This document shows positions 17,554 to 41,251 of a DNA stretch of 45,938 nt, piece by piece. Position numbers and translations under genes: made by a program. How positions within the stretch are numbered: the first letter of the stretch is position 1; each line of letters starts with the position of its first letter. Origin of the DNA: Candidatus Fervidifonticultor sextus (GTDB taxonomy: Bacteria; Sysuimicrobiota; Sysuimicrobiia; Sysuimicrobiales; Humicultoraceae). The notes below the pieces were generated by a model. The model searched no databases. It was given only the letters and a program-made list of their open reading frames with translations, and was not told where the DNA came from. The DNA is taken from assembly GCA_031459875.1 (NCBI GenBank), contig JAVKHQ010000022.1, forward strand, positions 1 to 45,938, in the 5' to 3' direction.

Positions 17554-17602
17554 GGTGACCTCCCGAAACCGGTCGGGGCCGGCTACATCACCATGCCTCA
17601 CC

Positions 17603-17626
17603 AATTCGGATATTTTCGTCCGAATA
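17603..17626. promoter_or_regulatory. Putative repressor operator (ATTCGGA-N8-TCCGAAT) in the nxrA leader
   Basis: Perfect 7-bp inverted repeat (17604-17625) in an AT-rich patch downstream of the -10. Confidence 0.55.
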
Positions 17627-17643: not shown

Positions 17644-17689
17644 ATCCTACCGGGGGATGGGCCCCTCGGCAATCGGTTCGCTACCTGAT
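17644..17689 (-). promoter_or_regulatory. nxr promoter: box ATCAGG-TAGCGA-ACCGAT (17689-17672) plus -10 TAGGAT (17649-17644)
   Basis: 22-nt spacer, identical to the nos promoter; both boxes begin AAATCAGGT. Confidence 0.7.
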
Positions 17690-18274
17690 TTTGCCGGAGG
17701 CGCGATGCTGGTGAGGTGTGTTGATGTTGGCGAGCGTCCGGAGGTGCGGGTCGGCCGCCCGCAGGTCGTCGGCGGTGACCGCCCGGACCCGCAGCCCCTC
17801 CAGCGCCTCGTGCAGGCGCCGCACACCGGCGGCCAGCCGGCCTTCCAGCGCCGGCGCGGCGGCCGCCGCGTAGACCGCGTGGAGCGGGTGCCAGCGGCCG
17901 TCCACATGGGGGACGGCCGCATCGAACCCGACGGCGAAATGGCTCAGCAGTCGGACAGTACGCGCAGACAGAAACGGCAGGTCGCAGGCCGCCGCGAACG
18001 CCCACGGCGTGGTCACCGCCGCCAGCCCGCTGCAGAGGCCGACCAGCGGCAACTGCTGCGGGCTGGCATCCACCACGACGCGGGTGCCCAGCCCCTCATA
18101 GCGGGCGCGGTCCTTGGCGACGATGACCACCTCCGCGCAGCAGGTGCGCAGCGCCTCCACGACGCGCTGGATCATCGGTACACCGTCGATGGGGACAAAG
18201 GCTTTGTCAGTTCCCATGCGCCGGCTCTGCCCGCCAGCCAGAACGATGCCCGTGAGCTCCGCAAGGACGGTCAT
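17681..18274 (-). CDS. mobA: Molybdenum cofactor guanylyltransferase
   Basis: 'GIVLAGGQSRRMGTDKA', 'ACDLPF', 'HPLHAVY', 'NINTP'; ATGA overlap with the moeA stop. Confidence 0.92.
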   Translation of the reverse strand: MTVLAELTGIVLAGGQSRRMGTDKAFVPIDGVPMIQRVVEALRTCCAEVVIVAKDRARYEGLGTRVVVDASPQQLPLVGLCSGLAAVTTPWAFAAACDLPFLSARTVRLLSHFAVGFDAAVPHVDGRWHPLHAVYAAAAAPALEGRLAAGVRRLHEALEGLRVRAVTADDLRAADPHLRTLANINTPHQHRASGKIR

Positions 18275-20082: not shown

Positions 20083-20134
20083 CCCGCACCTCTGCCGCAC
20101 CCCGCGCAGCCGCCGGAGTGCTGCGCTGTTCCCT

Positions 20135-20255: not shown

Positions 20256-20387
20256 CTACCATGAGGACCGGGGGCGGCGGTCAGCGGAACCGCGCTCATT
20301 CATGGTGAGGAGGGCGTACAGCGGCCAGGCCATGAAGACCACGCCCGGGATGTGCGCGAAGCGGAGAAACGCCAGCACCATCTCCAC
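20256..20387 (-). pseudogene. 43-codon ORF: small membrane protein or truncated membrane-protein remnant
   Basis: GAGGAGGG RBS 8 nt before GTG; MEMVLAFLRFAHIPGVVFMAWPLYALLTMNER... one hydrophobic helix; below the ORF-track cutoff. Confidence 0.4.
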
Positions 20388-21921: not shown

Positions 21922-21968
21922 GCCCCCTCACCGACGCCGCGCGCTCTCCCCGAGGCCCAGGGCGCCCA

Positions 21969-23456
21969 TCAGGACTTCGGCCCATGCGCTTCAGCAGGAC
22001 CATCATCGGCCTCGAGGGGGACGATGGGCAGGATCTTGGCGAGGGTGAGAAACGACAGGCCGCCCAGCGCGTACACTCCCGCCGTGATCAGCCATTCGGT
22101 CGGCGTGGGCGTGTAGGCGCCGGATGGAAAGGGGAGCAGCCGGTGGAATTGCGAGGGGACGACGATAAGCGTCCGCTCGGCGAACACCCCCATCACGACG
22201 AGCCCCGCGGCGACGCCGATCGCTGCCGTCCGGGTGGGCATCAGCGACGGGAGGAGCGCGAGCGCGGCGATCACCGCAGCGGCCATCGCCCATGCGCGGA
22301 GCGCCGCAGCGGGCAGTTCCACGGCGGCCTGGGGAGCCCGAACGGTCATCCACAGGGCCCCGAGCAGCAGGACCACGGCGGCCGCGGCCGCCGCAGGCCG
22401 GAGGGCCGGTGATGGCAGCCGGATGACCCACCGCGCAGGCAGCCCGGGGAACCACAGGATGCCCAGCGGCACGACGATCCCCAGCACGAGATCGAACCAG
22501 AACAGCGGGGCCAGCCGACCTTGCATGATGTCGTAGAAGATGGCCGCCGGGGCAGTCTCCCGCGCGTAGGTCACGGTGAGCAGTTCGGCAAAGAGGAAGT
22601 ACCCCAGCACCGGGAGGACCAGCGCGAGCACCCGGCCCAGCGAGTAGATGACTTCCTCGGCCACGGGGACGCGGAGCAGCGCCCGCGCCACCACCGTCGA
22701 GAGGATCACCAGGGCCAGGCCTGAGGCCACCGCAGACGCCACGAACAGCGGCGCGATGAGGGCGGAGTGCCAGCCCGGCTGCGCCTTGAGCAGCCCGAGG
22801 ATCCATGCGGTGACGGAGTGCAGGGCGACGGCCATTGGAATGGAGACCACGGCGAGCGCCCTGAGAATCCCTTGATCCCGGTGCACGGCTGCATCGGACA
22901 GATCCAGCCTCCCCAGCGCCAGCCACCGGTACAGCCTCTTCCGGTGCGGCAGCAACGCCATCAGTTTGACGACGTCGCGTCTGGCACTGAAGTAGCCCAG
23001 CGCCAGTGCGGTCAGCAGATACAGGATGATCACGATCACGTCCCATGTCAGGGGAGACCCAGGCCGCCCGTAGATCAGCAGGTGCCAGAGCCGTTCAGGG
23101 CGTCCCAGATCCAGCGTGATGAAGATCGTCGCGAGGACCAGACAGCTGATGGCGCCCAGTTCGGCGATCCGGCCCACCGGTTCGAGGCGGCGCACGCCCG
23201 CGGCGTGCGCCAGGGCGGCGACGATGATGCCTCCCGCCGACAGCCCGATGAAGTAGACGAAGTTCACGATGTAGAGGCCCCAGGTGACCTGCGTGTTCAG
23301 CCCGGTCACGCCCAGGCCGAAGGCGAGTTGCCGGGTGATGTAGGCATAGCCGGCCGCCAGGACCACGGTGGCCAGGGCGGCGACGGCGACCCAGTAGGCC
23401 GGCCCGGCCGTGGTCAGGACACGCAGGAGCGGATGTTCCCCACGGACCCTGGCCAT
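21969..23456 (-). CDS. NrfD/PsrC/DsrP-family membrane anchor
   Basis: 'VTWGLYIVNFVYFIGLSAGG', 'DLGRPER', 'SPLTWD', 'LHSVTAWI'; GGAGG RBS. Confidence 0.9.
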   Translation of the reverse strand: MARVRGEHPLLRVLTTAGPAYWVAVAALATVVLAAGYAYITRQLAFGLGVTGLNTQVTWGLYIVNFVYFIGLSAGGIIVAALAHAAGVRRLEPVGRIAELGAISCLVLATIFITLDLGRPERLWHLLIYGRPGSPLTWDVIVIILYLLTALALGYFSARRDVVKLMALLPHRKRLYRWLALGRLDLSDAAVHRDQGILRALAVVSIPMAVALHSVTAWILGLLKAQPGWHSALIAPLFVASAVASGLALVILSTVVARALLRVPVAEEVIYSLGRVLALVLPVLGYFLFAELLTVTYARETAPAAIFYDIMQGRLAPLFWFDLVLGIVVPLGILWFPGLPARWVIRLPSPALRPAAAAAAVVLLLGALWMTVRAPQAAVELPAAALRAWAMAAAVIAALALLPSLMPTRTAAIGVAAGLVVMGVFAERTLIVVPSQFHRLLPFPSGAYTPTPTEWLITAGVYALGGLSFLTLAKILPIVPLEADDGPAEAHGPKS

Positions 23457-23461
23457 CGTCC

Positions 23462-24181
23462 TTAACCTCCCGTCAGGTAGTAGACGCGAGGGCGCGTGCC
23501 CAACTCCTCCAGCAGCCGGATGGCCCGGCGGCTGTGAGCCAGCCGGTGCACCTCGCTGGTCGGATCGTCCAGGTCGCCGAAGGCGATGGCCTTCGCGGGA
23601 CACGTCTGCGTGCAGGCGGTGACGTAGTCCCCGTCCCTGAGTTGGCGCCCCTCGGCTTCGACCCTCCGGCGGGCCTGCTCCAACCGGTGGATACAGAACG
23701 TGCACTTCTCCACCACGCCCCTGAACCGGACCTCGGGGCCCTGCCGGCCCCCGGTCCGCGGGCGCCGCGGACCGGTGTCCGGGTTCAGGGCACGGGCCAT
23801 CGGCGTCGGCCACCGGGGGGCCAGCCAGTTGAAGTGCCTAGCCCCATACGGGCAGGCCACCATGCAGTACCGACAGCCGATGCACCGATCGTAGTCCTGG
23901 ATCACCAGCCCGTCCTCGCGCTTGTAGGTGGCGCCGACCGGGCAGACCTGCACGCAGGGCGGCTCGTCGCAGTGCATGCAGGGCCGGGGGACGAACTGGG
24001 CCCGCACGTTGGGGTAGTCGCCGTCGAGGTGGGTCAGCAATTCCATCCAGAAGATCGCCCGCCCCCGTTCGGCTTCCTCCGGACCCGCGAACGGCACGTT
24101 GTTCTCCGCCCGACAGGCCGCCACGCACGCCTGGCAGGCCGTGCACTTGTCCAGGTCGATCACCATGCCCCAGCGCGGCAT
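23462..24181 (-). CDS. NrfC/PsrB-type four-cluster Fe-S protein
   Basis: CTACQAC...C, CMHCDEPPC...CP, CIGCRYC...CPY, EKCTFC...ACTQTCP. Confidence 0.92.
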   Translation of the reverse strand: MPRWGMVIDLDKCTACQACVAACRAENNVPFAGPEEAERGRAIFWMELLTHLDGDYPNVRAQFVPRPCMHCDEPPCVQVCPVGATYKREDGLVIQDYDRCIGCRYCMVACPYGARHFNWLAPRWPTPMARALNPDTGPRRPRTGGRQGPEVRFRGVVEKCTFCIHRLEQARRRVEAEGRQLRDGDYVTACTQTCPAKAIAFGDLDDPTSEVHRLAHSRRAIRLLEELGTRPRVYYLTGG

Positions 24182-24190
24182 CGATCTCTC

Positions 24191-26593
24191 CTATGCCCGG
24201 GCGATCCTGACCCGGGTGCTGAACCAGGCGGCATTGCCCCCCAGGTAGTCGTACTCGTTGGCGGTGATCTCGTTGGGATTGGCGCCGCGGCCCGCCGCCC
24301 ATCGGCCGTAGGCCCGGTGGCCCAGTTCAAACGGCATGGCAATCACGTCGGGCCTGGCGCCGGGGAAAAGCCTGGCGCGCGTCTTGAGGCGGCCGATGGG
24401 GGACTCGATCCAGATCCAGTCCCCTTCGCGGATCCCGAGGGAGGCAGCGACCGTGGGGTTGACCTCGGCCCAGCCTCGCCACCGCTCCCGGAGGTGCGGG
24501 CCCAGCATCTCCTGGAGGTTGGGAACGTTGGCTCCCCGGCCTTCGGCGTGGGCCATCAACTTGTAGGTCACGAGGACGAAGGGATAGGCCTTGGGGTCGC
24601 CGACGTGTCGGATGGGTTCGTAGTGGGGCAGGTAGACGAGGTCGCCCCGGGCCCCGATCTTGAGGCCCCTGAGGATGTCCTCCAGGGCCTGCTCGGGGGT
24701 CACACCTCTGCGCTCGGCGTCGCTTCTGGCCAGTTCGTCCAACTTGTGCTGGAGCGTCTGGGAGAAGAATTCGAACTTCCCGCTGGGCGTCTTGAGCACG
24801 CGTTCCCACTCCCCGAAGCGATAGGGGGGATCGGCCCAGACGCCGCGGCGCGTGAACTCCTTCCACCAGCCGTCGAAATCCGCCGCGCGGAACGACCCCC
24901 TCCCGGACTCCCAGATCCCCCTGGCCCTGAACTGAATGACCTCCAGAAAGGTCCTCCAGGGGAAGCTCCGTGCGACCGAGCCCCCCAGCCTGCGGGCGAT
25001 CTCCAGGAGCACGTCGCCCGCGTTCCTCGTGTCATGCAGCGGCTCCACCACCGGCTGGCGGATCGCCCAGACGGGGTACCCCAGACTGGGGTAGATTGTG
25101 TCGTCGTGCCACCGCTCCAGATAGGTGTGGTCGGGCAGCACCAGATCCGCCTGGGCGGTCGTCTCGTCCATGAACGGCGAGAAGGTGACGATGAAGGGGA
25201 CCTGCCTGAAGGCCTCGTAGTACCGCGCCACGTTCGGTGACGAGAAGAGCGGGTTGGTGTAGTAGAGGATCACCGTGTCGACCGGGTAGGGGTCCCGTGC
25301 CAGGAGCGCCTCGGGGAGGTGGGCGTAGACGTTGGCGGCGAGCGGAAAGCGCGCGGTGCCCGCGTGGTCGATCCGTGGCCGCTTCCCGCCGGCTTCGGCC
25401 ACGTCGTCCTTGACGATGTCCGGCCACTTCGTGAAGGGAGGATCGTTCTGCACCAGGATCCCGCCGGGGGCATCCACGCTGCCGACCAGCGCATTGAGGG
25501 CGTGGATCGCCATGCGGGCGTAGATGCCGTTGGTCTGCATGCTGCTGCCGCGCTCGCCGGCGGCGATGGCGGGACGGGTGGTCGCGAACTCCCGCGCCAC
25601 GCGGACGATGACGTCTGCCGGCACCCCGGTGATGCTCGAGACCCGTTCCGGTGGATACTCCTCCAGGACCAGCCGCTTGAAGCCGCGGTGGAGGCGTTTC
25701 TGCTCGTCCTCCCAATCCTCGAACCCGAAGGTGCGTTCGGCGAGGAAGGCGTGGTCGTACAGCCCGTCCCGCACGATGACGTGGGCGATGCCCAGCGCCA
25801 GCGCGCCGTCAGTTCCGGGCCTGATGGGAATCCACTCGTCAGCCTTGGCCGCGGTGATCGAGAACCGCGCGTCCACCTGGACCAGCTTTCCGCGGACCGG
25901 CCGGCCCCGGCGCATGTGCCCGTAGGCCCGGAGTAGCCGGGTGGTGGGCCGCCACGCCTCCAGGAAGGCGCCGCCGAAGCAGAGGAGGTAGTTGGTGTGG
26001 TCCCAGTCGTAGCCCGCGTAGTGCTTGAAGCCCTGGGTGAGGTAGTGGCCGAGTTTGCTCCCGTCGGCGCAGATGCTGGAGTGGCCGACATGGTTGGGAG
26101 AGCCGTAGGCGGCGAGGAACCGGTCCCACAGAGCCCCCATCTGACCCCGGTTGCGGCCGCTCATGACGACCAGCCGGTGCGGCTCGCCGCGCTGGCGGAG
26201 GAGGCGGAGCCGGTCCACCAGCATCCCGATGGCCTCGTCCCACGAGATGGACTGCCACCGCCCGCTCCCCCGCTCCCCGACCCGGCGCAGGGGGCCGGTG
26301 ACCCGATCCGGGTCGTAGAGGATCTGGAGGCCGATCTGCCCCTTGGGGCACAGGCGCCCTTCGTTGATGGGATGCAGGGGGTTGCCCTCGATCTTCACCG
26401 CGCGGCCGCCGACGACGCGGACCAGGAGCCCGCACCCGGCAGGGCACTGCAGGCACACGCTGGGGACCCACCGTTCGTCCGGGCCCGGCCCGGACGGGCC
26501 GGCGGCTAGACGCCGGCTCAGGCCCGGTCCGGTGGTGCTGGCCACCCCGACCGCGGCGGAGATCTTGAGGAGCATCCGGCGGGTCAGCCGCAT
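24191..26593 (-). CDS. Tat-exported Mo-bisPGD oxidoreductase related to ArxA/ArrA/PsrA
   Basis: TRRMLLK leader; CLQCPAGC...LCPKG 4Fe-4S; 'YGSPNHVGHSSICADGSK' Mo-ligand Cys; 'YDWDHTNYLLCFGGAFLEAWRP'. Confidence 0.88.
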   Translation of the reverse strand: MRLTRRMLLKISAAVGVASTTGPGLSRRLAAGPSGPGPDERWVPSVCLQCPAGCGLLVRVVGGRAVKIEGNPLHPINEGRLCPKGQIGLQILYDPDRVTGPLRRVGERGSGRWQSISWDEAIGMLVDRLRLLRQRGEPHRLVVMSGRNRGQMGALWDRFLAAYGSPNHVGHSSICADGSKLGHYLTQGFKHYAGYDWDHTNYLLCFGGAFLEAWRPTTRLLRAYGHMRRGRPVRGKLVQVDARFSITAAKADEWIPIRPGTDGALALGIAHVIVRDGLYDHAFLAERTFGFEDWEDEQKRLHRGFKRLVLEEYPPERVSSITGVPADVIVRVAREFATTRPAIAAGERGSSMQTNGIYARMAIHALNALVGSVDAPGGILVQNDPPFTKWPDIVKDDVAEAGGKRPRIDHAGTARFPLAANVYAHLPEALLARDPYPVDTVILYYTNPLFSSPNVARYYEAFRQVPFIVTFSPFMDETTAQADLVLPDHTYLERWHDDTIYPSLGYPVWAIRQPVVEPLHDTRNAGDVLLEIARRLGGSVARSFPWRTFLEVIQFRARGIWESGRGSFRAADFDGWWKEFTRRGVWADPPYRFGEWERVLKTPSGKFEFFSQTLQHKLDELARSDAERRGVTPEQALEDILRGLKIGARGDLVYLPHYEPIRHVGDPKAYPFVLVTYKLMAHAEGRGANVPNLQEMLGPHLRERWRGWAEVNPTVAASLGIREGDWIWIESPIGRLKTRARLFPGARPDVIAMPFELGHRAYGRWAAGRGANPNEITANEYDYLGGNAAWFSTRVRIARA

Positions 26594-27984: not shown

Positions 27985-28635
27985 CTAGGGCCGGATCCCC
28001 CGGCGCGCCGCATAGGCGGCCGCCTCGGTCCGCCGCCGGAGCTGGAGTTTGGCCAGGAGGGTCGTCACGTAGTTCTTGACGGTCTTCTCGCTGATGTGGA
28101 GGGTCTCGCCGATCTCTCGATTCGTGCGTCCTTCGGCGATCAGCGCCAGGACGCGGCGCTCCTGGGGGGTCAGGGGGTCGGGGGCGGATTCGTCGCCGGA
28201 CGCCAGGCGCCGGAAGCGGTCGAGCAGCGTGGCGGTGACCGCGGGGTCGAGCACCGAGCCGCCCGCAGCCGCCACCCGGATGGCGTGGATCAGGTCTGAG
28301 GCGGCGCTGCCTTTGAGTACGTATCCCGCCGCGCCGGCGACCACCGAAGCCTCCACCGCCTCTTCGTCTGCATACGAGGTCAGCATCACCACCTGCGTCT
28401 GTGGCCTGGCGGCCTTGATCTCCCGGCAGGCTTCGACGCCGGTCCCGTCCGGCAGTCGGACGTCCATGATCACCACGTCGGGATGAGCGCGTCCCGCTGC
28501 CGCGATCGCCTGGGCGACCGTCGTCGCCTCTCCGACGATCTCGAACTCGGGCCGGCTGCCAAGCAGCGCGCGGAGCCCGAGCCGGACCACCTCGTGGTCA
28601 TCCACGATGAGCAGTCGCACTCGGTCGGTCGCCAC
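27985..28635 (-). CDS. DevR/DosR-like NarL-family response regulator
   Basis: 'VDDHEVVRLGL', 'DVRLPDGTG', 'TNREIGETLHISEKTVKNYVTTLLAKL...RRTEAA'; start 28635 or 28644. Confidence 0.9.
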   Translation of the reverse strand: MATDRVRLLIVDDHEVVRLGLRALLGSRPEFEIVGEATTVAQAIAAAGRAHPDVVIMDVRLPDGTGVEACREIKAARPQTQVVMLTSYADEEAVEASVVAGAAGYVLKGSAASDLIHAIRVAAAGGSVLDPAVTATLLDRFRRLASGDESAPDPLTPQERRVLALIAEGRTNREIGETLHISEKTVKNYVTTLLAKLQLRRRTEAAAYAARRGIRP

Positions 28636-30781
28636 GTCCTCCACTTCCCCCACCACTGCGGGGCACCTCGACGGCCACGGTCGTCCCTCGGCCAGGCGCA
28701 CTGCGGACGGCCAGGCGGCCACCGATCCAGGCCGCGCGCGCCTGCATGTTCCCCAGTCCCTCGCCGCCCGCGCGCGGGGCGTCCGGGTCGAAACCGCACC
28801 CGTCATCGCGCACCTCCAGGCGGAGGTGCGCCCCGTCACCCTCCAGGCGCACCTCGGCCTGGCTCGCCCGGCTGTGCCTGACGGCGTTCGCCAGGGCCTC
28901 GCGCACGATCATGAGCACCTGCGCGCGGTCGCCCTCGGGCAGGTCGACCGTCCGGTCCTGCGCCTGGATGCGGACGATGAACGGCGCGGTGGCGCTCACC
29001 TCGCCGACCAGGGCCTCCAGGGCCTCGATCAGGGGACGGTCGGTCTCCTTGCGCCGATGGAGACCCCGGACGAACGCCCGGATCTCGTCCGTCACCTTTG
29101 CCATGGCCGCCAGGCATTGCCCCATGCGTTCGGATGCTGCCGCAGGGTCTGCCAGGACGGCCGACCGGGCCGCCTCCAGCGCCAGCGCGATGCCGTAGAG
29201 GGACTGCAGGGTGCTGTCGTGCAGGTCCCGCCCGATCCGTTCGCGCTCTTCGAGTACCGCCAGGTGATGAAGCTGCTCGTGGAGGTCGGCGCTGCGCATC
29301 GCGATGGCCGCCAGGTTGGCCAGGCCTGCCAGCAGGCTGCCGGCGCGGGCATCGAGCCCGACCTGCCCGCGCGAGCCGACGCACAGCGCGCCCTGGACCA
29401 CGCCGTCGAGGACCAGGGGCGCCACCGCGTGCGACCGCTGGTAGGCCGGGCGCAGCACCGGACATCCGCCCCCTGCGGTCCTGGGCAACCGCAGCCTGTT
29501 CGGCCCGGCACACAGCGGGGCCGCGCCGGGGATGACGGCGTCTGCGGCGCCGCTGACGGCCGCCGCCGTCCCGCGCCACCGCTCGCCGGCCAGACACACC
29601 ACGGCCACCTCTGCACCAAGCAGCCGGCGCGCGTGGTCGGCGACCGCCTGGAGCACGCCGCCGAGGTCCGGACGGGCCAGCACCTCCCGGCTGACCTCGT
29701 AGAGGGCGTGCGCCTCGGCCTCGCGTCGGGTGAGATCGTCCAGCAGCGCCCGCAGCCGCTCGCGCATGGCGTCGAAACTCTCCGCCAGCTCACCGATCTC
29801 GTCGCGGCGTTCGACCGGGACGGTGCCCTCCAGGTCCCCTGCCGCGATCCGGCGCGTCTGCGTCGCCAGACACCGCAGCGGCCGGATGACCATCCCGGTG
29901 TCCCACCAGGCGAAGGCCAGCGCGACCAGCAAGGCGACGATCCCGAAGCCGACCATGCGCGTGCGCATCCGGGCCACCGGGGCCAGCGTCTCGGCTTCGG
30001 TCTCACCGAAGCTCACACCCCAGGGGGCGACGCGCGAGGGCGCAAACGCCATGATGTGCTGCTCGATGGGGACGTGGTTCCTGTAGTACGCTGCCGGCCC
30101 CACCCTCGCCTCGCGGCGGGCGATCAGGGCAGCGTGGAAGTCGGGGTGCTCGTCGGCGCCGAAGCGGTCGTCGGCATCGGTGGACGCCAGGATCATCCCC
30201 CGGGCGTCGACGATGACCGCGTGGCCGGTCCGGCCGAGCTGGACCCCGCCGATGTAACGGTCAAGCGGCAGCCGGGACAGGTCTGCGGCCGCACACAGGG
30301 CCCCGGGGTCCGCCGCCACGCACACCAGGACGATCGGCACCGCTGTCCGGGGTGCCGCCACCAGGTCCGAGATGGCCATCCGGCTCCCTGCCAGGACCTT
30401 CCGGACGGCTTCCACGTCTGCCAGGGAGACCCCACGGTCGGACTGCCGCCGGCGGCCGGCCTGCACGACGGTGCCCCGGGCGTCGAGCAGGTAGAGGCTG
30501 TAGGAGGCCAGGGGTTCCTGCGCGGCCAAGCCGTCCCATCGCGCCGCGGCGCCGGGGTCGGAGAGCCGGTGCAGGTCGAGGGACGCCGCCATGCCGGCCA
30601 GGTGCTGCACCGTACGCAGCAGGGCATCATCCAGCCGCTCGGCTAGGGCGCGCGCCGTGATCAGGCGCTCCTCGAGCAGGCGCTGTTTGCTCTCCTGGAG
30701 CATCTGGACGCCGGAGAAGCCGAGGACCACCATAACGGCGGTGAGACCGACGGCCACGGCCGCCAGGATCCGGAGCCGCAA
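28598..30781 (-). CDS. Membrane sensor kinase (Cache-like periplasmic domain, HAMP, GAF, HisKA_3, HATPase)
   Basis: Two TMs, 'RRDEIGELAESFDAMR', 'ERERIGRDLHDSTLQ', 'DDGCGFD...GLGNM'; start codon uncertain (TTG 30781 chosen, no clear RBS). Confidence 0.85.
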   Translation of the reverse strand: MRLRILAAVAVGLTAVMVVLGFSGVQMLQESKQRLLEERLITARALAERLDDALLRTVQHLAGMAASLDLHRLSDPGAAARWDGLAAQEPLASYSLYLLDARGTVVQAGRRRQSDRGVSLADVEAVRKVLAGSRMAISDLVAAPRTAVPIVLVCVAADPGALCAAADLSRLPLDRYIGGVQLGRTGHAVIVDARGMILASTDADDRFGADEHPDFHAALIARREARVGPAAYYRNHVPIEQHIMAFAPSRVAPWGVSFGETEAETLAPVARMRTRMVGFGIVALLVALAFAWWDTGMVIRPLRCLATQTRRIAAGDLEGTVPVERRDEIGELAESFDAMRERLRALLDDLTRREAEAHALYEVSREVLARPDLGGVLQAVADHARRLLGAEVAVVCLAGERWRGTAAAVSGAADAVIPGAAPLCAGPNRLRLPRTAGGGCPVLRPAYQRSHAVAPLVLDGVVQGALCVGSRGQVGLDARAGSLLAGLANLAAIAMRSADLHEQLHHLAVLEERERIGRDLHDSTLQSLYGIALALEAARSAVLADPAAASERMGQCLAAMAKVTDEIRAFVRGLHRRKETDRPLIEALEALVGEVSATAPFIVRIQAQDRTVDLPEGDRAQVLMIVREALANAVRHSRASQAEVRLEGDGAHLRLEVRDDGCGFDPDAPRAGGEGLGNMQARAAWIGGRLAVRSAPGRGTTVAVEVPRSGGGSGGRGDRPSATAHRG

Positions 30782-30871
30782 ACTGAAACGCCTGTGCGTC
30801 GGCGTCCCCCCTGCCGGGACAGGCCTCCGGCCGCTCCACCACCACTGCCGGAGCCTGTGGCGTGTGCCGTC

Positions 30872-30917
30872 AGCGTATCGGGGTTTCCCCTCGGGGTCTA
30901 TCGGGCGACGGACGGAT
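30872..30917 (-). promoter_or_regulatory. Sensor kinase promoter: box ATCCGT-CCGTCG-CCCGAT (30917-30900) plus -10 TACGCT (30877-30872)
   Basis: 22-nt spacer. Confidence 0.6.
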
Positions 30918-30923
30918 GCGGGC

Positions 30924-30957
30924 GGCGCCCGCGGGCCCGGAGAGGCTCGCGGGCGCC
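30924..30957 (-). terminator. 14-bp hairpin after the rhodanese gene
   Basis: GGCGCCCGCGGGCC-N6-GGCTCGCGGGCGCC with one mismatch; no U-tract. Confidence 0.5.
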
Positions 30958-30981
30958 TGCTTGTGCAAGGATCAGTGTACG

Positions 30982-31419
30982 TTACTTCACTACCGGGAAG
31001 TTCTGGGCCGTCCACTCCCGCATGCCCAGCGCCATGGTCTTCGCGTTGGTGTAGCCCAGCAGCCGCAGCGTCATGGTCACGTAGCTCGCCCGCAGGCCCG
31101 AGACGCAGATCACAACGATCTCGGCGTTCTTGTCGGCCGGCAGCCTGTCCAGATTCCTGGGCAGGGTCCGGATCGGGACGTTCACGGCGCCCTGGATGCG
31201 GCCGGCCTCGAACTCCGCCGCCTCCCGCACGTCGAGCAGGAACGGCCTCTCGCCGGCATCCAGCCGGGCCTTGAGCGCCGGGGGCATGATGCTGTGGTAG
31301 TCGGCGGGCAGGTTCGCGAGGAACCCGAACAGCGCTTCCTGAACCGGTGAGGTCTGCGCCACCGCGGTCGGGGCGGCCGCGAGCGCGACCAGCAGGGCGA
31401 CGGTCAACAACCTTTTCAT
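30982..31419 (-). CDS. Exported single-domain rhodanese (sulfurtransferase)
   Basis: Signal peptide ending AVA-Q; 'LDVREAAEFEAGRIQGA'; active-site loop CVSGLR; GGAGG RBS. Confidence 0.9.
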   Translation of the reverse strand: MKRLLTVALLVALAAAPTAVAQTSPVQEALFGFLANLPADYHSIMPPALKARLDAGERPFLLDVREAAEFEAGRIQGAVNVPIRTLPRNLDRLPADKNAEIVVICVSGLRASYVTMTLRLLGYTNAKTMALGMREWTAQNFPVVK

Positions 31420-31437: not shown

Positions 31438-32751
31438 TCATCGTGGTGGAATCGGTCTGGGCGGCGCGGTGACCACCTGACCGTTGGCCTGCGAGTCCCC
31501 GGGATTGAGGTCCTGGAGCCGCAGGAACAGGTTCGGGTTGTTGTGACAGGCGTCGCACGTCCGGCTGCGCGCCGTGACCCGCTGGATGTTGTGGGGCGTG
31601 GCGGGTTTCCACGTGGGGATCCTGTCGAAGTTGGCCAGCGTGTTGGGCAGCCGGGTCAGCCGGTCGATCATGTCCGGCGTGGTCGGCACGTGGCGCAGCA
31701 GCATGTAGACATAGGGCAGGTCGCGACTCGTGTTGCGGCCGATCTTGAGGGTCGGCCGCGAGGTCGAGCCTTCCCCCGCATGGCAGCCGTCGCAGCTCTT
31801 GATGATCCCGCCGTGGCAGACCGCGCAGTGCAACTTGCCGCCGTGGACGTTGTGGGCCTGCAGCCGGCTCTTCCCGGGCGCCGCCGTGGGATGGCAGTCG
31901 GTGCACGCCGGCTTGGCCCTCACGGCGCGGCGGGTGGGCGGTGCGCTGCCGTCCCCGTGCAGTTGCGTGGCGCTGTGGCAGGAGGTGCAGGTCATCTTCG
32001 CCTTGGAGAAGTGCACGTCGGCGGGGAAGCCTTCGTAGGTCCCGGTGAACTCGGCGGCCACCCGGCCCGAGTGGCAGCCGTGGCACGTCTGTTCCACCGG
32101 CGGCGATTTCACGAACTCGTGCCCTTTCAAGAGCCCGCCCAGGATGGCAGGCGGCGCCGGCTGATAGGGCGGCCGGCTGACGTGGCAGTCCCCGCAGGTC
32201 GCGTGGCAGCTCTGGCACGACCGCCGATAGACGGGTCTGGCTGCCGTCCAGCGCACGGTTCCCACCAACGCGCGCAGCCCGTTCTCCAATCCCCGCGTCG
32301 TGAAGTGCAGGCTCTTCGCAAACCGGCTCGCGATCTCGGCGTGGCACCCCCCACAGGTCTGCACCGGGTTCGCCGACGGCCGGCGGATCAGCCCGCTGTG
32401 CGCGCTCTTGATATCGAGGGTCTGGGGCTGCCCGGCGTGGCAGGTGGTGCAGCCGAGCTGACCGTGGGTGGAGTTCAAGAACGCCGGTGAGACCAGTTTG
32501 CGTTCGACGGGCGCCCCCGACGGGGGCAGGGGGGCCGCTCACCCTTCACCCTCGGCTGGCGGCGGCGGCAGGGGCGGGACCAGCGGCTCCAACCGCGCCC
32601 GGTCCGTGTGGCAGGCCACGCACCCGTTGCGAGCCTGGCCCGACGGCGCCGGCGGTGCGGCAGCCCCCAGCAGCAGGGCCACGACGGCCACCGTGGCGGC
32701 CAGGGGGGTCAGCCAGCCGATCCGCGCAGTTCGCGTCGGCGTCGGGCGCAT
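31438..32751 (-). CDS. Predicted selenocysteine-containing 11-heme cytochrome c (437 aa, Sec71 at UGA 32541-32539)
   Basis: Signal peptide + CVACH ORF ends AEGEG-TGA and continues in frame without stops (AAPLPPSGAPVERKLVSPAFLNSTHG) into ten more CxxCH motifs; SECIS-like hairpin follows the UGA. Confidence 0.8.
32513..32527 (-). ncRNA. Bacterial SECIS-like hairpin GCCCCC-GUC-GGGGGC
   Basis: Starts 11 nt after the in-frame UGA; apical loop begins with GU. Confidence 0.65.
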
Positions 32752-33170
32752 CACGCCACCTGCCTCCGGATTTGCGCCTCGCGTTCCTTGGCGCGGTGCA
32801 TCACACACAGGATCGCCTGCAGCCACTCGGGATCGATGCGGTCGCGCGGCACGCAGGCACACGCCCCCGCCTGCCAGGCGGCCGCCCGGTACTCGCGGCT
32901 GGACTCCGGCAGCAGCACCAGCAGGCGCAGGCCCGGGTGCTCGACCGCTAGCCCCTCCAGCGCGCCCAGCAATCCGGAGGGGACCAGATGCCAGTCCAGC
33001 AGCAGGACATCGGGCGACCAGGCGGCGAGCCGGTCGCGCGCCTGGGCCAGGGTTGCGGCGTCTTCGACTTCGATCGGGACGGGCAGCAGGGCGCGGGTCG
33101 CCTCAGCCAGGTCTCTGAGCGCACTGCGGAATCCTGGGTCGGCTGCCGCCACCAACACCCGAAACGCCAT
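32751..33170 (-). CDS. Stand-alone atypical receiver-domain protein
   Basis: REC pattern 'RVLVAAAD...PDVLLLDW...AGACACVPR'; TGATG-coupled to the cytochrome. Confidence 0.75.
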   Translation of the reverse strand: MAFRVLVAAADPGFRSALRDLAEATRALLPVPIEVEDAATLAQARDRLAAWSPDVLLLDWHLVPSGLLGALEGLAVEHPGLRLLVLLPESSREYRAAAWQAGACACVPRDRIDPEWLQAILCVMHRAKEREAQIRRQVA

Positions 33171-33304: not shown

Positions 33305-33967
33305 CTACACGTCCTCGCTCAGCAGCCCCCGGCGCAGCGCGTAGCGCACCAGGTCGGCCCGCGTGGACAGTTCCAGCTTCTCCATGATGCGGGCGCGGTA
33401 GGTCTCGACGCTCTTGGGGCTGAGGCTGAGCTGCGCGGCGATTTCGCGTGCGGTGTAGCCCGAGGCCACCAGCCTCAGCACCTCGCGTTCGCGCTCGCTC
33501 AGCCGATCATAGCCGTCCTGCTCCTCGCCGGACTGGACGCGCGCGACGAAGTCTTCGAGCAGGCGGCGGGCGGCCCCCGGTTGCAGGAACGCACCCCCTG
33601 AGGCTACCGTGCGCACGGCTTCCACCAGTTCGGTATCGGCGGCGGTCTTGTTGAGGTAACCGGCGGCTCCGGCCTTGAGGACCGGGAACAGGTAGCGCTC
33701 CTGGGCATGGACGGTGAGGATGAGGACCTGGGAGGGCAGATCCAGCCTGCGGATCTGCCGCGTGGCCTCCAGGCCGTCCTGGCCGGGCATGCTGATGTCC
33801 ATGATGATCACGTCCGGCCGCAGGCGCTGCGCCAGAGCCACGGCCTCGCGCCCGTCCCCGGCCTCGCCGACTACGCTCATGTCGGGCTCCTGCTCCAGCA
33901 GGGCCCGCAGGCCGGTCCGCAGGACCGGGTGGTCGTCGGCCAGCAGCACGCGGATGCGCTTGGTCAT
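33305..33967 (-). CDS. NarL/NreC-family response regulator
   Basis: 'LADDHPVLRTGL', 'MDISMPG', 'LSEREREVL...SPKSVETYRARIMEKL'. Confidence 0.92.
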   Translation of the reverse strand: MTKRIRVLLADDHPVLRTGLRALLEQEPDMSVVGEAGDGREAVALAQRLRPDVIIMDISMPGQDGLEATRQIRRLDLPSQVLILTVHAQERYLFPVLKAGAAGYLNKTAADTELVEAVRTVASGGAFLQPGAARRLLEDFVARVQSGEEQDGYDRLSEREREVLRLVASGYTAREIAAQLSLSPKSVETYRARIMEKLELSTRADLVRYALRRGLLSEDV

Positions 33968-35055
33968 GTCGTCTGCCCCTCGCCGGCAAGATCGACCTGC
34001 GCGACGATCGTGGTGCCCCCTCCCGGGGCCGACCGCACGTCCAGACGTCCGCCGACCAGCGCTATGCGCTCGCGCATCCCGGCCAGGCCCAGTCCGCCGG
34101 TGCCGCTTCGCGCCCGGGCGGGATCGAAGCCGCTCCCGTCGTCTTCCACCTCCAGAACCACGCGCGATCCGGCTCGATGCAGCCGGACCCAGGCCTGCCG
34201 GGCTCCGGCGTGACGGCGCACGTTGGTCAGGGCCTCCTGGGCGACGCGGTAGAGGGCAAGTTCCACCTCGCGGGGCAGACGGCCGTCCAGACCGTCGACC
34301 GTGAGCGTCATCCGCGTGGGCCCCGCGGCGGTGAGGCTGTCGACGTGGGCGTGCAGGGCATCGACCAGCCCCAGGTCGTCGAGCATCGACGGGCGGAGTT
34401 CCAGGGCAATCCGCCGCACGTCCTCCAGCGCGCGCGCCGTCAGGTCGCGGAGTTCGGCCAGCCGCTGCCGCACCTCATCCGGACCGTGGGCCTGCTCCAG
34501 CAGCCGCAACCGGACCAGCAGCGAGGTGATGGACTGCGCGGCCTCATCGTGCAGTTCGCGGGCGATCCGCCGGCGCTCCTCCTCCTGCGCGCGCAGGATC
34601 TGGCCGGGCAGGCGCCGCAGCCGCTCGGTGTGATCTTCCAGGGCGGCGAGCATCTGGTTGAAGGTGTCGGCCAGGTGGTCGAAACGCTCGTCCGAGGGGC
34701 CCGTCCGGGCGACCCGCACTCCCCTCTGGCCGGCCCGCACCGCATCCACGGCCCGCTGCAGGTGGTCCAGCGGCCTCAGGACGGCCCGCAGCACGAGGAA
34801 GTTCGCCACCAGACTGACGGCCACGCCGGCGAGCGCGAACATCGCCATGAGGTCGTAGTGCGGGGCCTCGGGATGCCGCGCGCCGTGGCCGACGGCGATC
34901 GCCGTCCCCGCCACGGCTCCCAGGGCCACGACGAGCGCGTTGGCGCCGAGGATCTTGTACAGCAGTGGGACGCGCGCCAGCCACCGGAGCACCCCGGTGA
35001 GCGTGCCGCCAGGAGCGCTCGCATCCGCTCGGGTGCCGACGACCTCTCGTTCCAT
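33964..35055 (-). CDS. Two-TM HAMP HisKA_3 sensor kinase with very short extracytoplasmic loop
   Basis: 'RRIARELHDEAAQSIT', 'LRPSMLDDLG', 'QEALTNVRRHA', 'DDGSGFD'. Confidence 0.9.
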   Translation of the reverse strand: MEREVVGTRADASAPGGTLTGVLRWLARVPLLYKILGANALVVALGAVAGTAIAVGHGARHPEAPHYDLMAMFALAGVAVSLVANFLVLRAVLRPLDHLQRAVDAVRAGQRGVRVARTGPSDERFDHLADTFNQMLAALEDHTERLRRLPGQILRAQEEERRRIARELHDEAAQSITSLLVRLRLLEQAHGPDEVRQRLAELRDLTARALEDVRRIALELRPSMLDDLGLVDALHAHVDSLTAAGPTRMTLTVDGLDGRLPREVELALYRVAQEALTNVRRHAGARQAWVRLHRAGSRVVLEVEDDGSGFDPARARSGTGGLGLAGMRERIALVGGRLDVRSAPGGGTTIVAQVDLAGEGQTT

Positions 35056-38086: not shown

Positions 38087-38461
38087 ATGAGACTGCCCTT
38101 CACACAGGAAGCGCGTCTGCTTCGCATCCTGGCCCATCCCGCGTGGCTGGCGATCCTGGAGATCCTCCGTCACCGTCCCGCCTGCGTCTGCCATCTCACG
38201 GCGGCGCTTGAACACCGACAGGCCTACGTCTCGCAGCAACTGGCGATCCTCCGGAAGGCCGGCCTGATCGTCAACCGTCGGGACGGCGCATACACCTACT
38301 ACGCGCTGCGGGACCACGGCGTCCTGGGCCTGGTGGACCTTGCCCGCAGGATTCACGGACGTCGGCCGGTCCCCGCCCTCTCCGCGACCGGTCGGCTCGC
38401 GGGCTGTGCGTGCCCTCAGTGCAGCCAGGAGGGCCGATTGGTCAGGGGAGCCGGTCGGTGA
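38087..38461 (+). CDS. ArsR/SmtB-family metalloregulator
   Basis: 'LAHPAWLAIL...ACVCHL...VSQQLAILRKAGLI...YYAL'; C-terminal CACPQC. Confidence 0.88.
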   Translation: MRLPFTQEARLLRILAHPAWLAILEILRHRPACVCHLTAALEHRQAYVSQQLAILRKAGLIVNRRDGAYTYYALRDHGVLGLVDLARRIHGRRPVPALSATGRLAGCACPQCSQEGRLVRGAGR

Positions 38462-39507
38462 TCGCCACCCTGCTGCTCGCGGGGTTCCAGGCCGTGAGGG
38501 AGTACATCGCCCTGCACGTCGTGACCTGCCTCGCCCCCGCCTTCCTGCTGGCCGGGGCCATCGTCACCTTCGTCTCCAAAGAAGCCGTCGTGCAGCGCCT
38601 GGGCCAAGCGGCGTCCAGGACCGCCAGCTTCTCGACCGCCGCGGGGGCCAGCTTCTTCCTCGCGGCCTGCTCGTGCACCGTGATCCCGGTCTCCAGCGGC
38701 CTCTACTACGGGGGGGCTGGCATCGGACCCGCGTTCATCCTGCTGTGGGTCGCCCCGGCGTCCAACCTGCTCTCCTTGATCTACACGGCGAGCATCTTGG
38801 GCGTCGAGATGGCCTGGGTGCGGGTCCTGACGGCCCTGGCCATGGCCTTCGTGGTGGGATGGGTGATGACCCTGGCGTTCAGCCGCGAAGAAATGCAGCG
38901 GATGAGCGCCTTCTCCAACGGCCCCACATCGCGCATCCTGAGCCCCACCGACCTGACCCTCATGGGCCTGCTGGTCGTCTCGCTGCTGGCGCCCAACTAC
39001 CTGGTCCGCGGCGGTCCCTACAGCCAGAAGGTGCTGGTCTGGGCCGCCGCGATGGTCCTGGTCGTGGCCTATGCGCGGTGGAGGAAGACTGACCGAGAGA
39101 TCCGCCGCTGGCTCCAGGAAACCTGGTGGTTCGTCCGGATCATCTTCCCTCTGCTCCTGCTGGGCGTCTTCCTCGTGGGAGTGATCGGGGCGGCCGTGCC
39201 CCGGGCCTGGATCGAGGCCTACCTCGGGGGCTCAGGGCTGCTGGCTTCGTTCTTCGCCACCGTGCTGGGGGCCGTCAGCTACTTTGCCACCATGACCGAG
39301 GCCCCGTTCGTCCACACGCTGCTGGGGCTCGGCATGGGCAAGGGGCCGGCGCTGGCGCTCCTGCTCACCGGGCCCGGGCTGAGCCTGCCCAACTGGCTGG
39401 CCATCGGGCGGGTGTTTGGCGCCAAGAAAGCCGCAGTCTACGTCGGCACGATCATCATCCTGGGCACCATCGGCGGCTGGTTCGCCGGGACATTTATCTT
39501 TACGTAA
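38458..39507 (+). CDS. ArsP/DUF318-family permease
   Basis: 'HVVTCLAPAF', 'AACSCTVIP', 'YFATMTEAP', 'GPALALLLTGPGLSLP'; GTGA-coupled to arsR. Confidence 0.87.
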   Translation: MIATLLLAGFQAVREYIALHVVTCLAPAFLLAGAIVTFVSKEAVVQRLGQAASRTASFSTAAGASFFLAACSCTVIPVSSGLYYGGAGIGPAFILLWVAPASNLLSLIYTASILGVEMAWVRVLTALAMAFVVGWVMTLAFSREEMQRMSAFSNGPTSRILSPTDLTLMGLLVVSLLAPNYLVRGGPYSQKVLVWAAAMVLVVAYARWRKTDREIRRWLQETWWFVRIIFPLLLLGVFLVGVIGAAVPRAWIEAYLGGSGLLASFFATVLGAVSYFATMTEAPFVHTLLGLGMGKGPALALLLTGPGLSLPNWLAIGRVFGAKKAAVYVGTIIILGTIGGWFAGTFIFT

Positions 39508-39782: not shown

Positions 39783-40021
39783 GAGATCGCGATCAGCACC
39801 GGGAGGCGGCAGGCGCCTCCTCTCGGGCGGCGACCCTAGGGGCGGCAACCGACCGGGCCTGAACCGTTCGTGCAGGCCGGATCAGTATTTCCTCCACGGG
39901 GAGAATCGTCCGCCAACCGGATTACCAATTCCGCCCGCGCGGCCTGAAATGGGGATGAGGGGGTCTCCGTAGGGGCGCGGGGACACCCGTGCAACGGGAC
40001 GCTCTCGGGGAGGCGCGCGCC

Positions 40022-41251
40022 ATGGAGACCGGCGACCTGCGTGGTGCCGCGTCAGCAGCCCAGGTACATCCTGCACTCTTGTTCGACCCCCACGAAGACT
40101 GGCGGCGCGCGTTTGACCCCTGCATCCAGTGCGGGCTGTGCGGCGGCGCCTGTCCGCTGGCCCATGCGATGGACTACACCCCGCGCCGCGCCATCCACCT
40201 GGCCAGAGAAGGCCTGCTGGACAGGGTCCTCCAAAGCAACACGCTGTGGCTGTGCGTCTCCTGCTACACCTGCACGGCGCGCTGCCCCACCGGCCTGAAG
40301 ATCACCGACGTCCTGTTCCCGGCCCTGCGGGATGCGGCCATCAACGCCGGGCTGCAGCTCCCCGGAGAGTTCAAGAGGGCGCTGGACAACACGTACCGCT
40401 ACGGGAACTCCCTGGGCGAAGGGCCCCGCAAGCGCCTGGAGTGGACCAAAGGCGCAGGCGTCCCCGTCCCGGTCATCTCGCAGGTGCGCCGGCGGGTCGA
40501 GGTCCTGTGGCTGGTGGAATGCTATCCCTCCTACCACCTCCGCAACCAGGTGCAGGCCCAGGCCATGGCGCGGCTGCTCCACGCCATGGGCGTGGACTTC
40601 GCCATCCTGGGACCGGAGGAGCACTGCGTCGGGGACTGCGAGCGCCTGGCCGGCGAGCGAGGGCTGTTCGAGAGTCTGGTCGAGTACAACACCTCGTTGC
40701 TCGACAAGTACGAGTACGACGTCCTCGTCACGGGGGACCCCCACGCCTACAATGCCCTGACCCGGATCTATCCGACGATCACCGGGCGAACCTACCCGAT
40801 CCGCCACTACGTTGAGTTCTTTGCCAGGCGACTCGACGCGCTGAAGCCCCTGTTGACTCACCGGATCGACGCCCGCGTGACCTACCACGACAACTGCTGC
40901 CTGGGGCGCATGTGCGGGCTCTACGACGCGCCGCGGGCGCTGCTGCGGGCGATCCCGGGCGTCAGCCTGGTAGAGATGGCCTTCAGCCGGGAGAACGCCC
41001 TGTGCTGCGGCGGCGGAGGCGGGGGCATGTGGCTGGACGGCGTGATCTGGCAGGCGGCTGGCGAACGGCTCTCCGACCGGCGCATCGGCCATGCCCTGGC
41101 CACCGGCGCGGACATCCTGGCGGTCTCCTGCCCCTTCGAGACCTCGCGCTTCGAAGACAGCCTGAAGTCCACCGGCCACGAGGGTCGGATGGTCGTCCGG
41201 GACATCCTGGAGTTGCTGGACCGGTCGATGCAAGGAGGCACTCCGGCATGA
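40022..41251 (+). CDS. HdrD-like Fe-S protein (two 4Fe-4S + CCG domains)
   Basis: CIQCGLCGGACP, CVSCYTCTARCP, 'TYHDNCCLGR', 'CCGGGGG', 'SCPF'. Confidence 0.87.
   Translation: METGDLRGAASAAQVHPALLFDPHEDWRRAFDPCIQCGLCGGACPLAHAMDYTPRRAIHLAREGLLDRVLQSNTLWLCVSCYTCTARCPTGLKITDVLFPALRDAAINAGLQLPGEFKRALDNTYRYGNSLGEGPRKRLEWTKGAGVPVPVISQVRRRVEVLWLVECYPSYHLRNQVQAQAMARLLHAMGVDFAILGPEEHCVGDCERLAGERGLFESLVEYNTSLLDKYEYDVLVTGDPHAYNALTRIYPTITGRTYPIRHYVEFFARRLDALKPLLTHRIDARVTYHDNCCLGRMCGLYDAPRALLRAIPGVSLVEMAFSRENALCCGGGGGGMWLDGVIWQAAGERLSDRRIGHALATGADILAVSCPFETSRFEDSLKSTGHEGRMVVRDILELLDRSMQGGTPA

Follow-up and report, generated by a model that had tools for sequence, protein, structure and literature searches.

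The DNA stretch analyzed here, referred to as the window, comprises 45,938 nucleotides of contig JAVKHQ010000022.1 (assembly GCA_031459875.1) of Candidatus Fervidifonticultor sextus, a bacterium of the phylum Sysuimicrobiota. On its minus strand, positions 31438-32751 were found to form a single continuous reading frame across an in-frame TGA, from an ATG at 32751-32749 to a final TGA at 31440-31438. As judged from the sequences of the gene and its relatives, this region is almost certainly one gene for an exported c-type cytochrome with eleven hemes and one selenocysteine (Sec) residue, U71. A gene for an exported rhodanese follows directly downstream, and the reading that was adopted as the best overall explanation, a Sec-containing undecaheme cytochrome with a proposed role beside this rhodanese, was assigned a probability of about 85%. 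The support for the gene structure and the Sec recoding is close to the best that a comparison of sequences can give, while the function is put forward as a hypothesis.

Gene Structure of the Cytochrome

An initial annotation of the window had noticed two open reading frames (ORFs) that lie in the same frame with 20 open codons between them, and this was verified for the minus strand. The upstream piece reads ...PAEGEG and is followed by TGA at 32541-32539 (codon 71). Exactly 20 sense codons (32538-32479) separate this TGA from a TTG at 32478, which had been called by the ORF listing as the start of a 346-aa ORF ending at the TGA 31440-31438. Read-through yields a protein of 437 residues, in which 11 CxxCH motifs are present (C44, C101, C133, C179, C186, C223, C255, C283, C309, C320, and C399), and Pfam yielded Cytochrome_C7 and c3 matches, including PF14522 with 49.4 bits. 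For the searches a query protein of 438 letters (P0001) was used, in which the terminal TGA is included and letters 71 and 438 are a C standing for TGA.

The N-terminus is basic and hydrophobic (MRPTPTRTARIGWLTPLAATVAVVALLLGAAA) and was judged by eye to represent an export signal of approximately 38 residues (32638-32751); similar hydrophobic or lipoprotein-like N-termini occur in the family. A Tat signal was rejected, because no twin-arginine motif was seen by eye. The first heme-binding motif, C44-V-A-C-H48 (32608-32622), is also encoded upstream of the UGA, and C44, C47, and H48 are invariant in two family alignments. The motif is followed by a Pro-rich stretch, which ends with PAEGEG, and then by the UGA, so that the site reads PAEGEG-U-AAP, and the longer read-through peptide is ...PAEGEG-U-AAPLPPSGAPVER. 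The 20 open codons (32479-32538) translate to AAPLPPSGAPVERKLVSPAF, and heme motifs 2-11 (C101 to H403) are encoded by positions 31543-32451. In contrast to the upstream piece, the TTG-started piece opens with MNSTHGQLGC and has no hydrophobic leader. The earlier observation that the upstream part brings an export signal and one CxxCH, and that the downstream part is devoid of an export leader, was thus confirmed. Gene callers stop at the UGA, and therefore a 70-aa fragment and a leaderless 346-aa "10-heme" protein are reported for this locus.

The In-frame TGA in Relatives

When 94 genomes of the phylum were searched in six frames, 14 matches in 12 genomes were obtained. All ten matches that cover codon 71, i.e., eight full-length matches including that of the window itself and two N-terminal fragments, hold exactly one TGA, and it is always at the same place. 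The remaining four are C-terminal fragments that do not reach this codon. The full-length matches have 64-100% identity with the window protein included and 64-91% without it. The closest named relative, a 'Candidatus Fervidifonticultor' metagenome-assembled genome (MAG) of the Sysuimicrobiota, is 91% identical over the protein. In the same-phylum relatives the TGA is preceded by PAEGEG and followed by A-x-P-L/V-P. The amino acids encoded by the 20 "intergenic" codons are conserved in relatives. The changes on both sides of the TGA are mostly synonymous, with ratios of synonymous to non-synonymous differences from the window of 12:3 upstream and 7:2 downstream for locus L012, and of 13:6 upstream and 11:1 downstream (the 20 "intergenic" codons) for locus L013.

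Species-representative genomes across phyla were scanned with the family alignment, and the best 80 of at least 587 loci were examined. A TGA within the motif GEG-U-[GA]-G, between heme motifs 1 and 2, was present in 75 of these 80 loci. Two loci have Cys at the Sec site (L039 and L046), and two others end before it (L042 and L078). Going by depositor titles, the genomes are, among others, those of Thermodesulfobacteriota/'Deltaproteobacteria', Chloroflexota, Nitrospinota, Rokubacteria, Phycisphaerae, Calditrichota, Spirochaetes, Actinomycetota, and an Eisenbacteria MAG, as well as the isolates Desulfosarcina widdelii, Desulfonema magnum, and Anoxynatronum buryatiense. When 15 annotated homologues were chosen because they cover the N-terminus, ten of them had Cys at the aligned column. 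The initial annotation had suggested to inspect homologues for Cys or a conserved TGA at position 71, and both were found.

Contigs from other samples of the same study were also compared. Those of runs X2 and X3 keep the TGA and have two and three differences from the window nearby, respectively. All three differences of X3 are synonymous third-position changes within the 20 "open" codons (codon positions were assigned by hand), while the contigs of run X4 do not reach the TGA. A sequencing or assembly error at 32539-32541, an objection that had been raised together with the initial annotation, can be regarded as effectively refuted, because the X2 and X3 contigs read the same TGA in spite of the nearby differences, and because the independent assemblies of nine other genomes of the phylum carry it as well.

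A broken or split gene would be another explanation, either as a nonsense pseudogene or with a true stop between a 70-aa monoheme peptide and a 10-heme protein starting at TTG 32478. It would agree with the two pieces annotated by gene callers and with the length of most database relatives, which are called at about 340-365 aa and cover 74-83% of the read-through query. In addition, by own count, a start only a few residues past the Sec site is found for 42 of the best 150 library representatives. It is nevertheless highly improbable, since the same TGA is present in at least 75 species-level genomes of many phyla, purifying selection is visible before and after the TGA and also within the 20 "intergenic" codons, the downstream piece is devoid of the export signal needed for heme attachment, and full-length Cys forms exist. 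Taken together, the retention of the TGA in relatives and in contigs from other samples leaves in practice no room for an error of sequencing, a nonsense mutation of recent origin, or a genuine boundary between genes.

A Hairpin Downstream of the UGA

The UGA is followed by a spacer of 11 nt (GCGGCCCCCCU, 32538-32528) and by the hairpin GCCCCC-GUC-GGGGGC (32527-32513), exactly as the initial annotation had described it. The stem consists of six G/C base pairs (32527-32522 with 32518-32513) and the loop of GUC (32521-32519). Spacer and hairpin (32513-32538, minus strand) together form a putative selenocysteine insertion sequence (SECIS). The SECIS of Escherichia coli fdhF is a hairpin inside the coding sequence, with an 11-nt spacer and a G (usually GU) opening the apical loop. 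The candidate element shares the location within the coding sequence, the 11-nt spacer, and the G(U) at the beginning of the loop. In contrast to the fdhF type it is shorter, having a stem of 6-7 bp and a 3-nt loop (6 nt in one subgroup), and no bulged U is visible.

Folding revealed a hairpin at the same distance past the UGA in all 75 Sec-type loci of the cross-phylum set. A covariation test was performed for a 7-bp helix (columns 14-20 with 24-30) in a gap-free alignment of 80 rows, i.e., the window, 73 Sec-type loci, and six same-phylum relatives. Loci L074 and L092, which have a 3-nt insertion, were omitted, although both show the hairpin. It was revealed that 85.0% of the cells are in standard pairs, compared to 43.6-52.5% when the partner strand was slid by one to three columns. 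The number of cells with changes on both sides was 78 as opposed to 13-29 after sliding, and the covariation score was 0.391 as opposed to 0.065-0.199. None of 500 column shuffles matched the observed score. For example, pair 16-28 is C-G (39) or G-C (29), and pair 18-26 is U-A (44), C-G (19), or G-C (8). The first loop base (column 21) is a G in at least 90% of the 80 rows, and the loop is GUC in the window and GUU in most relatives.

The pairing also left a trace in the protein. Most members encode V-A-P-L-E-P (GGCUCC GUU GGAGCC), while L035, L048, and L058 encode V-E-P-L-A-P (GGAGCC GUU GGCUCC). The stem is preserved by this swap of Ala and Glu, and thus the RNA constraint is visible in the amino acid sequence. 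As far as can be judged from the alignments, the hairpin is beyond chance, and this conclusion stems from the comparison across relatives and not from the folding energy.

Predicted Selenocysteine Decoding

The initial annotation had proposed to look for selA, selB, selC, and selD, and all four were found in the host genome, which is 96% complete. SelA was matched with 455.6 bits, the SelB wing domain with 65 bits, and SelD with 370 bits, and a tRNA-Sec(TCA) of 96 nt (contig C1, 21555-21650) adjoins selB and selA. The SelD match (G000:C7:11684-12604 (-), locus L004) contains one in-frame TGA, and the selenophosphate synthetase SelD is probably itself a selenoprotein in this organism. In the phylum SelA was found in 77 of the 94 genomes; among the 12 that hold the cytochrome, ten have it. 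This distribution is consistent with the use of Sec, but it has little discriminating power, because SelA is common in the phylum. Regarding cytochrome c maturation, two PF01578 genes are present on contig C4. One of these two, at G000:C4:22100-22651 (+) (locus L104), lies inside a 597-aa open frame that holds one TGA; this frame may represent two adjoining genes read through, or a further recoding candidate.

With these components, SelB and Sec-tRNA(Sec) would decode the UGA at 32541-32539, directed by the short G/C hairpin with a G-first loop 11 nt downstream. Decoding of the UGA as another residue, by near-cognate read-through (Trp, Cys, or Arg) or by a locally altered code, is very unlikely. 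It could account for the Trp found right at the site in some annotated homologues (GEGWAG in P0077 and P0143), as TGG is only one step away from TGA. However, TGA is the stop of 17 of the 34 ORFs of the window, including the cytochrome gene and its upstream neighbor, and a reassigned genetic code was rejected because TGA is a common stop here. Furthermore, the pairing of Sec and Cys at one site is the classic signature of selenoproteins, plain read-through would have no use for a hairpin that covaries and sits at the distance of a SECIS, and the full Sec machinery is present.

Several observations weigh against a Sec residue at this site. SelA was not found in two of the 12 genomes with the cytochrome, which are 84% (G004) and 73% (G032) complete. 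One of the 80 cross-phylum loci, L071, has neither Sec nor Cys. Five of the 15 annotated homologues covering the N-terminus have Trp (three) or His-Trp (two) at the aligned column, and of 45 library representatives with a match extending to the N-terminus, 14 were read by eye as having Cys within the motif, the remainder showing no discernible motif or Trp, His, or Tyr. As far as these sequences indicate, a selenol is not essential to every branch of the cytochrome family, and thus the Sec/Cys site marks a large clade and not the whole superfamily. Concerning the hairpin, the folding energy is no better than chance (z = 0.85; 163 of 200 shuffles fold as well), and an Rfam scan of 32300-32800 gave no match at E-values up to 10. 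In about 11 of the 80 rows of the covariation alignment (L073, L081-L086, L095, L096, L099, and L101) the register is shifted by 3 nt and the loop has 6 nt. These rows were scored as unpaired, which lowered the paired fraction. In addition, the SECIS overlies conserved codons, and therefore part of its conservation is due to protein constraint.

The initial annotation had itself named Trp, Arg, or other residues at this codon as an objection. This objection would apply to a minority of annotated homologues, those with Trp, His, Tyr, or no equivalent residue. The conserved TGA or Cys, the covarying hairpin, and the Sec genes all point to the 437-aa exported selenocytochrome with Sec71 that had been proposed, split in two by standard annotation.

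Examples of Trp, His, or Tyr at the Sec site, e.g., GEGWAG compared to GEGUAG, are P0063, P0070, P0077, P0103, and P0105, as well as P0131, P0132, P0135, P0143, P0147, and P0158. These variants could be real TGG/CAC codons in lineages that have abandoned Sec, or TGA that a gene caller translated under genetic code 4. Locus L071 (approximately 3890-5290, in a MAG labeled Nitrosomonadaceae), for which 12 CxxCH motifs were counted, reads ...SEGEGDNPGESMEGEMIPL... between heme motifs 1 and 2. The subgroup with the shifted hairpin encodes U-A-G-x-P-P-P/S-V and has a 7-bp stem of the CUCCGCC/GGCGGAG type with the loop GGUCAG or GGUUCG; its titles are Spirochaetes, Desulfuromonadales, Syntrophorhabdaceae, Pelobacter, Syntrophus, Desulfonema, and Desulfatirhabdium.

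Heme Protein Family and Predicted Fold

In 58 full-length members of the family the 11 CxxCH motifs and position 71 are invariant. In the family an extra heme motif is fused to motif 4 (CxxCHxxCGxCH). Only nine His residues outside the motifs are invariant in the 58 members, which is fewer than the eleven hemes, so that at least one heme would be without an obligatory His partner. H354 and M253 are each present in 50 of the 58 members. Among library clusters (50% identity), about 227 match the family profile at E-values up to 1e-30 and 851 at E-values up to 1e-10, the latter set being expected to include other multiheme families.

An AlphaFold2 model was built on the 58 full-length members and reached a mean confidence (pLDDT) of 86.5 and a predicted TM score (pTM) of 0.81. 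The best VIA-align match was 1sp3_A, the octaheme tetrathionate reductase (OTR) of Shewanella oneidensis (Z 9.7, root-mean-square deviation 4.3, 252 aligned residues, model residues 93-438 and the entire OTR chain), and the next entry had a Z of only 5.2. The family profile also found 1sp3 as its best PDB match (E = 5.8e-8), with OTR residue 4 aligned to profile position 112. Foldseek against the PDB gave nothing at E-values up to 0.001, its best row being again 1sp3 (E = 0.045), and a PDB search with the single sequence returned cytochrome c7 fragments only. According to the model, the architecture is an N-terminal extension, composed of heme 1, the GEG-U-[GA]-G loop, and heme 2, joined to an OTR-like multiheme core from about residue 93. 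OTR (TIGR04315) has the closest fold and acts as a multiheme reductase in the periplasm, where its substrate is a sulfur compound, but it has eight hemes and is without the N-terminal heme/Sec module. The model and the profile match support a distant relation to OTR at the level of the fold, and not membership in TIGR04315. No NCBIfam model reached its cut-off on the 58 members, the best being ExtM, ExtN, and DmsE-type models with E-values of about 1e-12 to 1e-14.

Several longer Sec variants exist: L033, L038, L054, and L068 have 13 CxxCH motifs and 543-578 aa, L066 has 13 motifs and 603 aa, and L097 has 18 motifs and 751 aa. Many of the shortened database members, which contain cytochrome domains only, are named "hypothetical protein" or, wrongly and by one source, "thiosulfate/3-mercaptopyruvate sulfurtransferase". 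The latter name was probably transferred from rhodanese-fused or neighboring genes.

The Rhodanese Partner and the Proposed Function

The rhodanese gene (30982-31419, minus strand) starts 18 nt past the cytochrome stop behind a ribosome-binding site (GGGAGGAGG). It encodes an exported single-domain protein of 145 aa with a leader, which matches PF00581 with 68.1 bits (E = 9.7e-19) and has the catalytic Cys105 in the loop CVSGLR. In 24 aligned rhodanese partners C105, G108, and R110 are invariant, and all have hydrophobic N-termini. The downstream ORF was surveyed in 67 of the 80 best loci; the other 13 gave no pick, as either the contig ended or an ORF of 70 aa or more did not start close by. 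A rhodanese with one to six domains was found in 45 of 67 cases, cytochrome b561 in five, 4Fe-4S proteins in three, ResB and CGGC in one each, and an ORF without a Pfam match in 12.

There are about even odds that the cytochrome, together with the rhodanese, is a periplasmic terminal reductase of sulfane sulfur (polysulfide, rhodanese persulfide, and possibly tetrathionate or thiosulfate) or of selenium oxyanions. The rhodanese would hand over sulfane sulfur in the periplasm, and the U71 selenolate would attack the chalcogen-chalcogen bond. The resulting Se-S(Se) adduct would then be resolved, and sulfide would be freed, by electrons arriving via the eleven-heme chain. This proposal was derived from analogy and gene linkage, and the insertion of selenium itself, the substrate, the catalytic direction, the electron donor, and the placement of Sec relative to the hemes are inferred as well.

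The best functional analogy is MccSep (ExtKL, GSU2937-2936) of Geobacter sulfurreducens, an unrelated five-heme protein for which the same principle was shown. MccSep was shown to reduce polysulfide (and selenite), with Sec serving as nucleophile and the hemes supplying electrons; its five hemes are accompanied by Sec325 in the context ...PDGUPTP... and by Cys239, which ligates a heme, and all members of its family have five heme motifs (PMC13510729). The Geobacter ext cluster pairs the rhodanese-like gene extH with the Sec cytochrome, as stated in an earlier report (PMC5877670). The two systems share a periplasmic cytochrome of the c type that has multiple hemes and a single Sec encoded by UGA, a hairpin resembling a SECIS just downstream, the routine annotation as two genes, and a rhodanese-like gene in the cluster. 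They differ in the number of hemes (eleven versus five) and in the position of Sec, which is Sec71 within GEG-U-[GA]-G ahead of heme 2 here and Sec325 near the C-terminus in MccSep. The initial annotation had cited ExtKL as a precedent for multiheme selenoproteins. Membership in the MccSep/ExtKL family was rejected, because NF040886 was absent from the matches of the window protein (E-values up to 0.01) and matched none of the 58 members (E-values up to 1e-5), and the MccSep chains 9wt8 and 9wt9 had no significant relationship to the family profile (E = 0.19). The sequences are best explained if Sec was recruited independently in MccSep and in the 11-heme family. The term "MHSEP", which had also been used, was absent from the papers that a literature search listed and has no occurrence in PMC5877670.

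A parallel is provided by the polysulfide respiration of Wolinella succinogenes with Sud and PsrABC, in which a periplasmic carrier of the rhodanese type passes sulfane sulfur on to a respiratory reductase, Psr, which is a molybdopterin enzyme. The same logic of carrier to reductase is proposed for the pair of rhodanese and cytochrome, but the proposed catalyst here is heme and selenium instead of molybdopterin.

The proposed function has its own counterarguments. TIGR04315 matched the window protein with 19.2 bits compared to a cut-off of 375, and only five of the 58 members matched it weakly (best E = 5e-8). The active-site heme of OTR has Lys56 as a ligand and Cys64 nearby, and the segment aligned to this region has no conserved Lys or Cys in the family (profile alignment, by eye). 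No quinol dehydrogenase adjoins the pair in the window, and the neighbors other than the rhodanese differ between lineages. The Sec loop (residues 61-80) was modeled with a pLDDT of only about 62. Sec71 had originally been placed on a flexible Pro-rich linker, but the motif is strongly conserved (G68 and G70 in at least 90% of the rows of the family alignment, position 71 invariant), and thus it is more than a linker.

A different job of the same selenoprotein is a possibility of somewhat more than one in three. The cytochrome could work oxidatively on sulfide, thiosulfate, or persulfide with His/Cys hemes of the TsdA/SoxAX type, it could use selenite, tellurite, or arsenic species as a substrate, or Sec71 could be an axial heme ligand that tunes an electron wire. 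A ligand role would fit to the nine invariant non-motif His residues for eleven hemes, and an SQR/FCSD-like flavoprotein adjoins the pair in L027. Many distant branches without Sec or Cys keep the heme core. Sec is usually selected at catalytic nucleophile positions, which argues against a ligand, the rhodanese in 45 of 67 downstream ORFs points to the handling of sulfane sulfur, and the nearest fold, OTR, is a reductase. Literature evidence in favor of a different job is that the phylum was described with sulfide or hydrogen as electron donors (PMC11604079), and that MccSep also turns over selenite (PMC13510729).

Implications

It is tempting to speculate that the reductive function, if correct, defines a second, independently evolved and far more widespread class of heme-selenium enzymes, i.e., OTR-like undecaheme cytochromes with a catalytic selenolate in an N-terminal GEG-U-GG loop and a dedicated periplasmic rhodanese that act as molybdenum-free respiratory reductases of sulfane sulfur or selenium; this extended proposal is tentative and somewhat less probable than not. 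According to depositor labels the family is spread over Desulfobacterota, Chloroflexota, Nitrospinota, Rokubacteria, Planctomycetota, Calditrichota, Spirochaetota, Bacillota, and Sysuimicrobiota, while in annotation it stays hidden, as gene callers end it at the UGA. Sec multiheme proteins of such an unrelated and wider type, with their fixed rhodanese, would be candidates for the respiration of sulfur, polysulfide, or selenium by many uncultured anaerobes and bacteria of hot springs, and reconstructions of metabolism based on Psr, Sre, Phs, or Ttr genes alone would change.

Multiheme cytochrome selenoproteins as such are already known, and the 11-heme family is distinct from the one characterized family. 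The report on MccSep appeared in 2026 and accounted for a gap of 50 years' standing in sulfur respiration, and MccSep is the only multiheme selenoenzyme characterized so far (PMC13510729); the interest of the present family is tempered by this precedent. In the passages considered of a 2026 review of the selenoproteome, the cytochrome-type selenoproteins are ExtKL, the GSU2204 family, and the octaheme TIGR04315 family, and no 11-heme family is listed there. GenBank-annotated Sec forms within TIGR04315 are given in the same review (PMC13188914). A literature search, from which supplements and most subscription journals were left out, found no published account of an 11-heme Sec family.

Selenoproteins are systematically lost in automated annotation, and for the 11-heme family the loss is large, as 75 of the 80 best loci have the TGA. 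The SECIS visibly constrains the protein sequence, as the swap of Ala and Glu keeps the stem, and thus represents a case of dual coding. The host phylum gains an exported selenoenzyme; the paper describing the Sysuimicrobiota has no occurrence of selenocysteine, multiheme, cytochrome c, rhodanese, or polysulfide.

Neighboring Genes

A receiver-like ORF of 139 aa (32751-33170, minus strand) lies directly upstream of the cytochrome gene. It matches Response_reg with 17.9 bits (E = 0.0035), below the Pfam cut-off of 30.2. Its stop and the cytochrome start overlap (GTGATG, 32749-32753), which suggests that the translation of a regulator-like protein is coupled to that of the cytochrome. Further two-component regulators around the pair are a NarL-type protein (33305-33967) and two histidine kinases (33964-35055 and 28598-31015).

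At other loci the surroundings are different. L033, L038, L054, and L068 have a cytochrome b561 gene downstream in place of the rhodanese, a possible membrane partner for quinol oxidation, and L024 has genes for NrfD and an FeS protein upstream of the cytochrome. In L027, from a Calidihabitans relative, the pair of cytochrome and rhodanese is flanked by the SQR/FCSD-like flavoprotein and a thioredoxin-fold protein (6005-7120 (-) and 8018-8719 (+)), and this neighborhood hints at a sulfide or sulfur context in the phylum.

About 5 kb from the pair, a molybdopterin oxidoreductase of the Psr/Phs/Arr clade is encoded (24191-26593, minus strand). It did not meet any NCBIfam model, with 438.9 bits for ArrA (cut-off 1600) and 349 bits for PhsA (cut-off 694). 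Its cluster (20296-26593, minus strand) also contains an unusually long NrfD-type membrane subunit (614 aa), an FeS subunit, and a 541-aa poly-ferredoxin/FlpD-like protein. This cluster is followed by MobA, a MoeA-MobB fusion, and a 1188-aa enzyme of the type II DMSO-reductase family (17681-20100 and 14038-17604). On the other side of the window, additional genes of a redox or thiol-disulfide kind were observed near the locus, for an ArsP-type permease (38410-39507, plus strand) and for two HdrD-like CCG/4Fe-4S proteins (39989-41251 and 43009-45024, plus strand).

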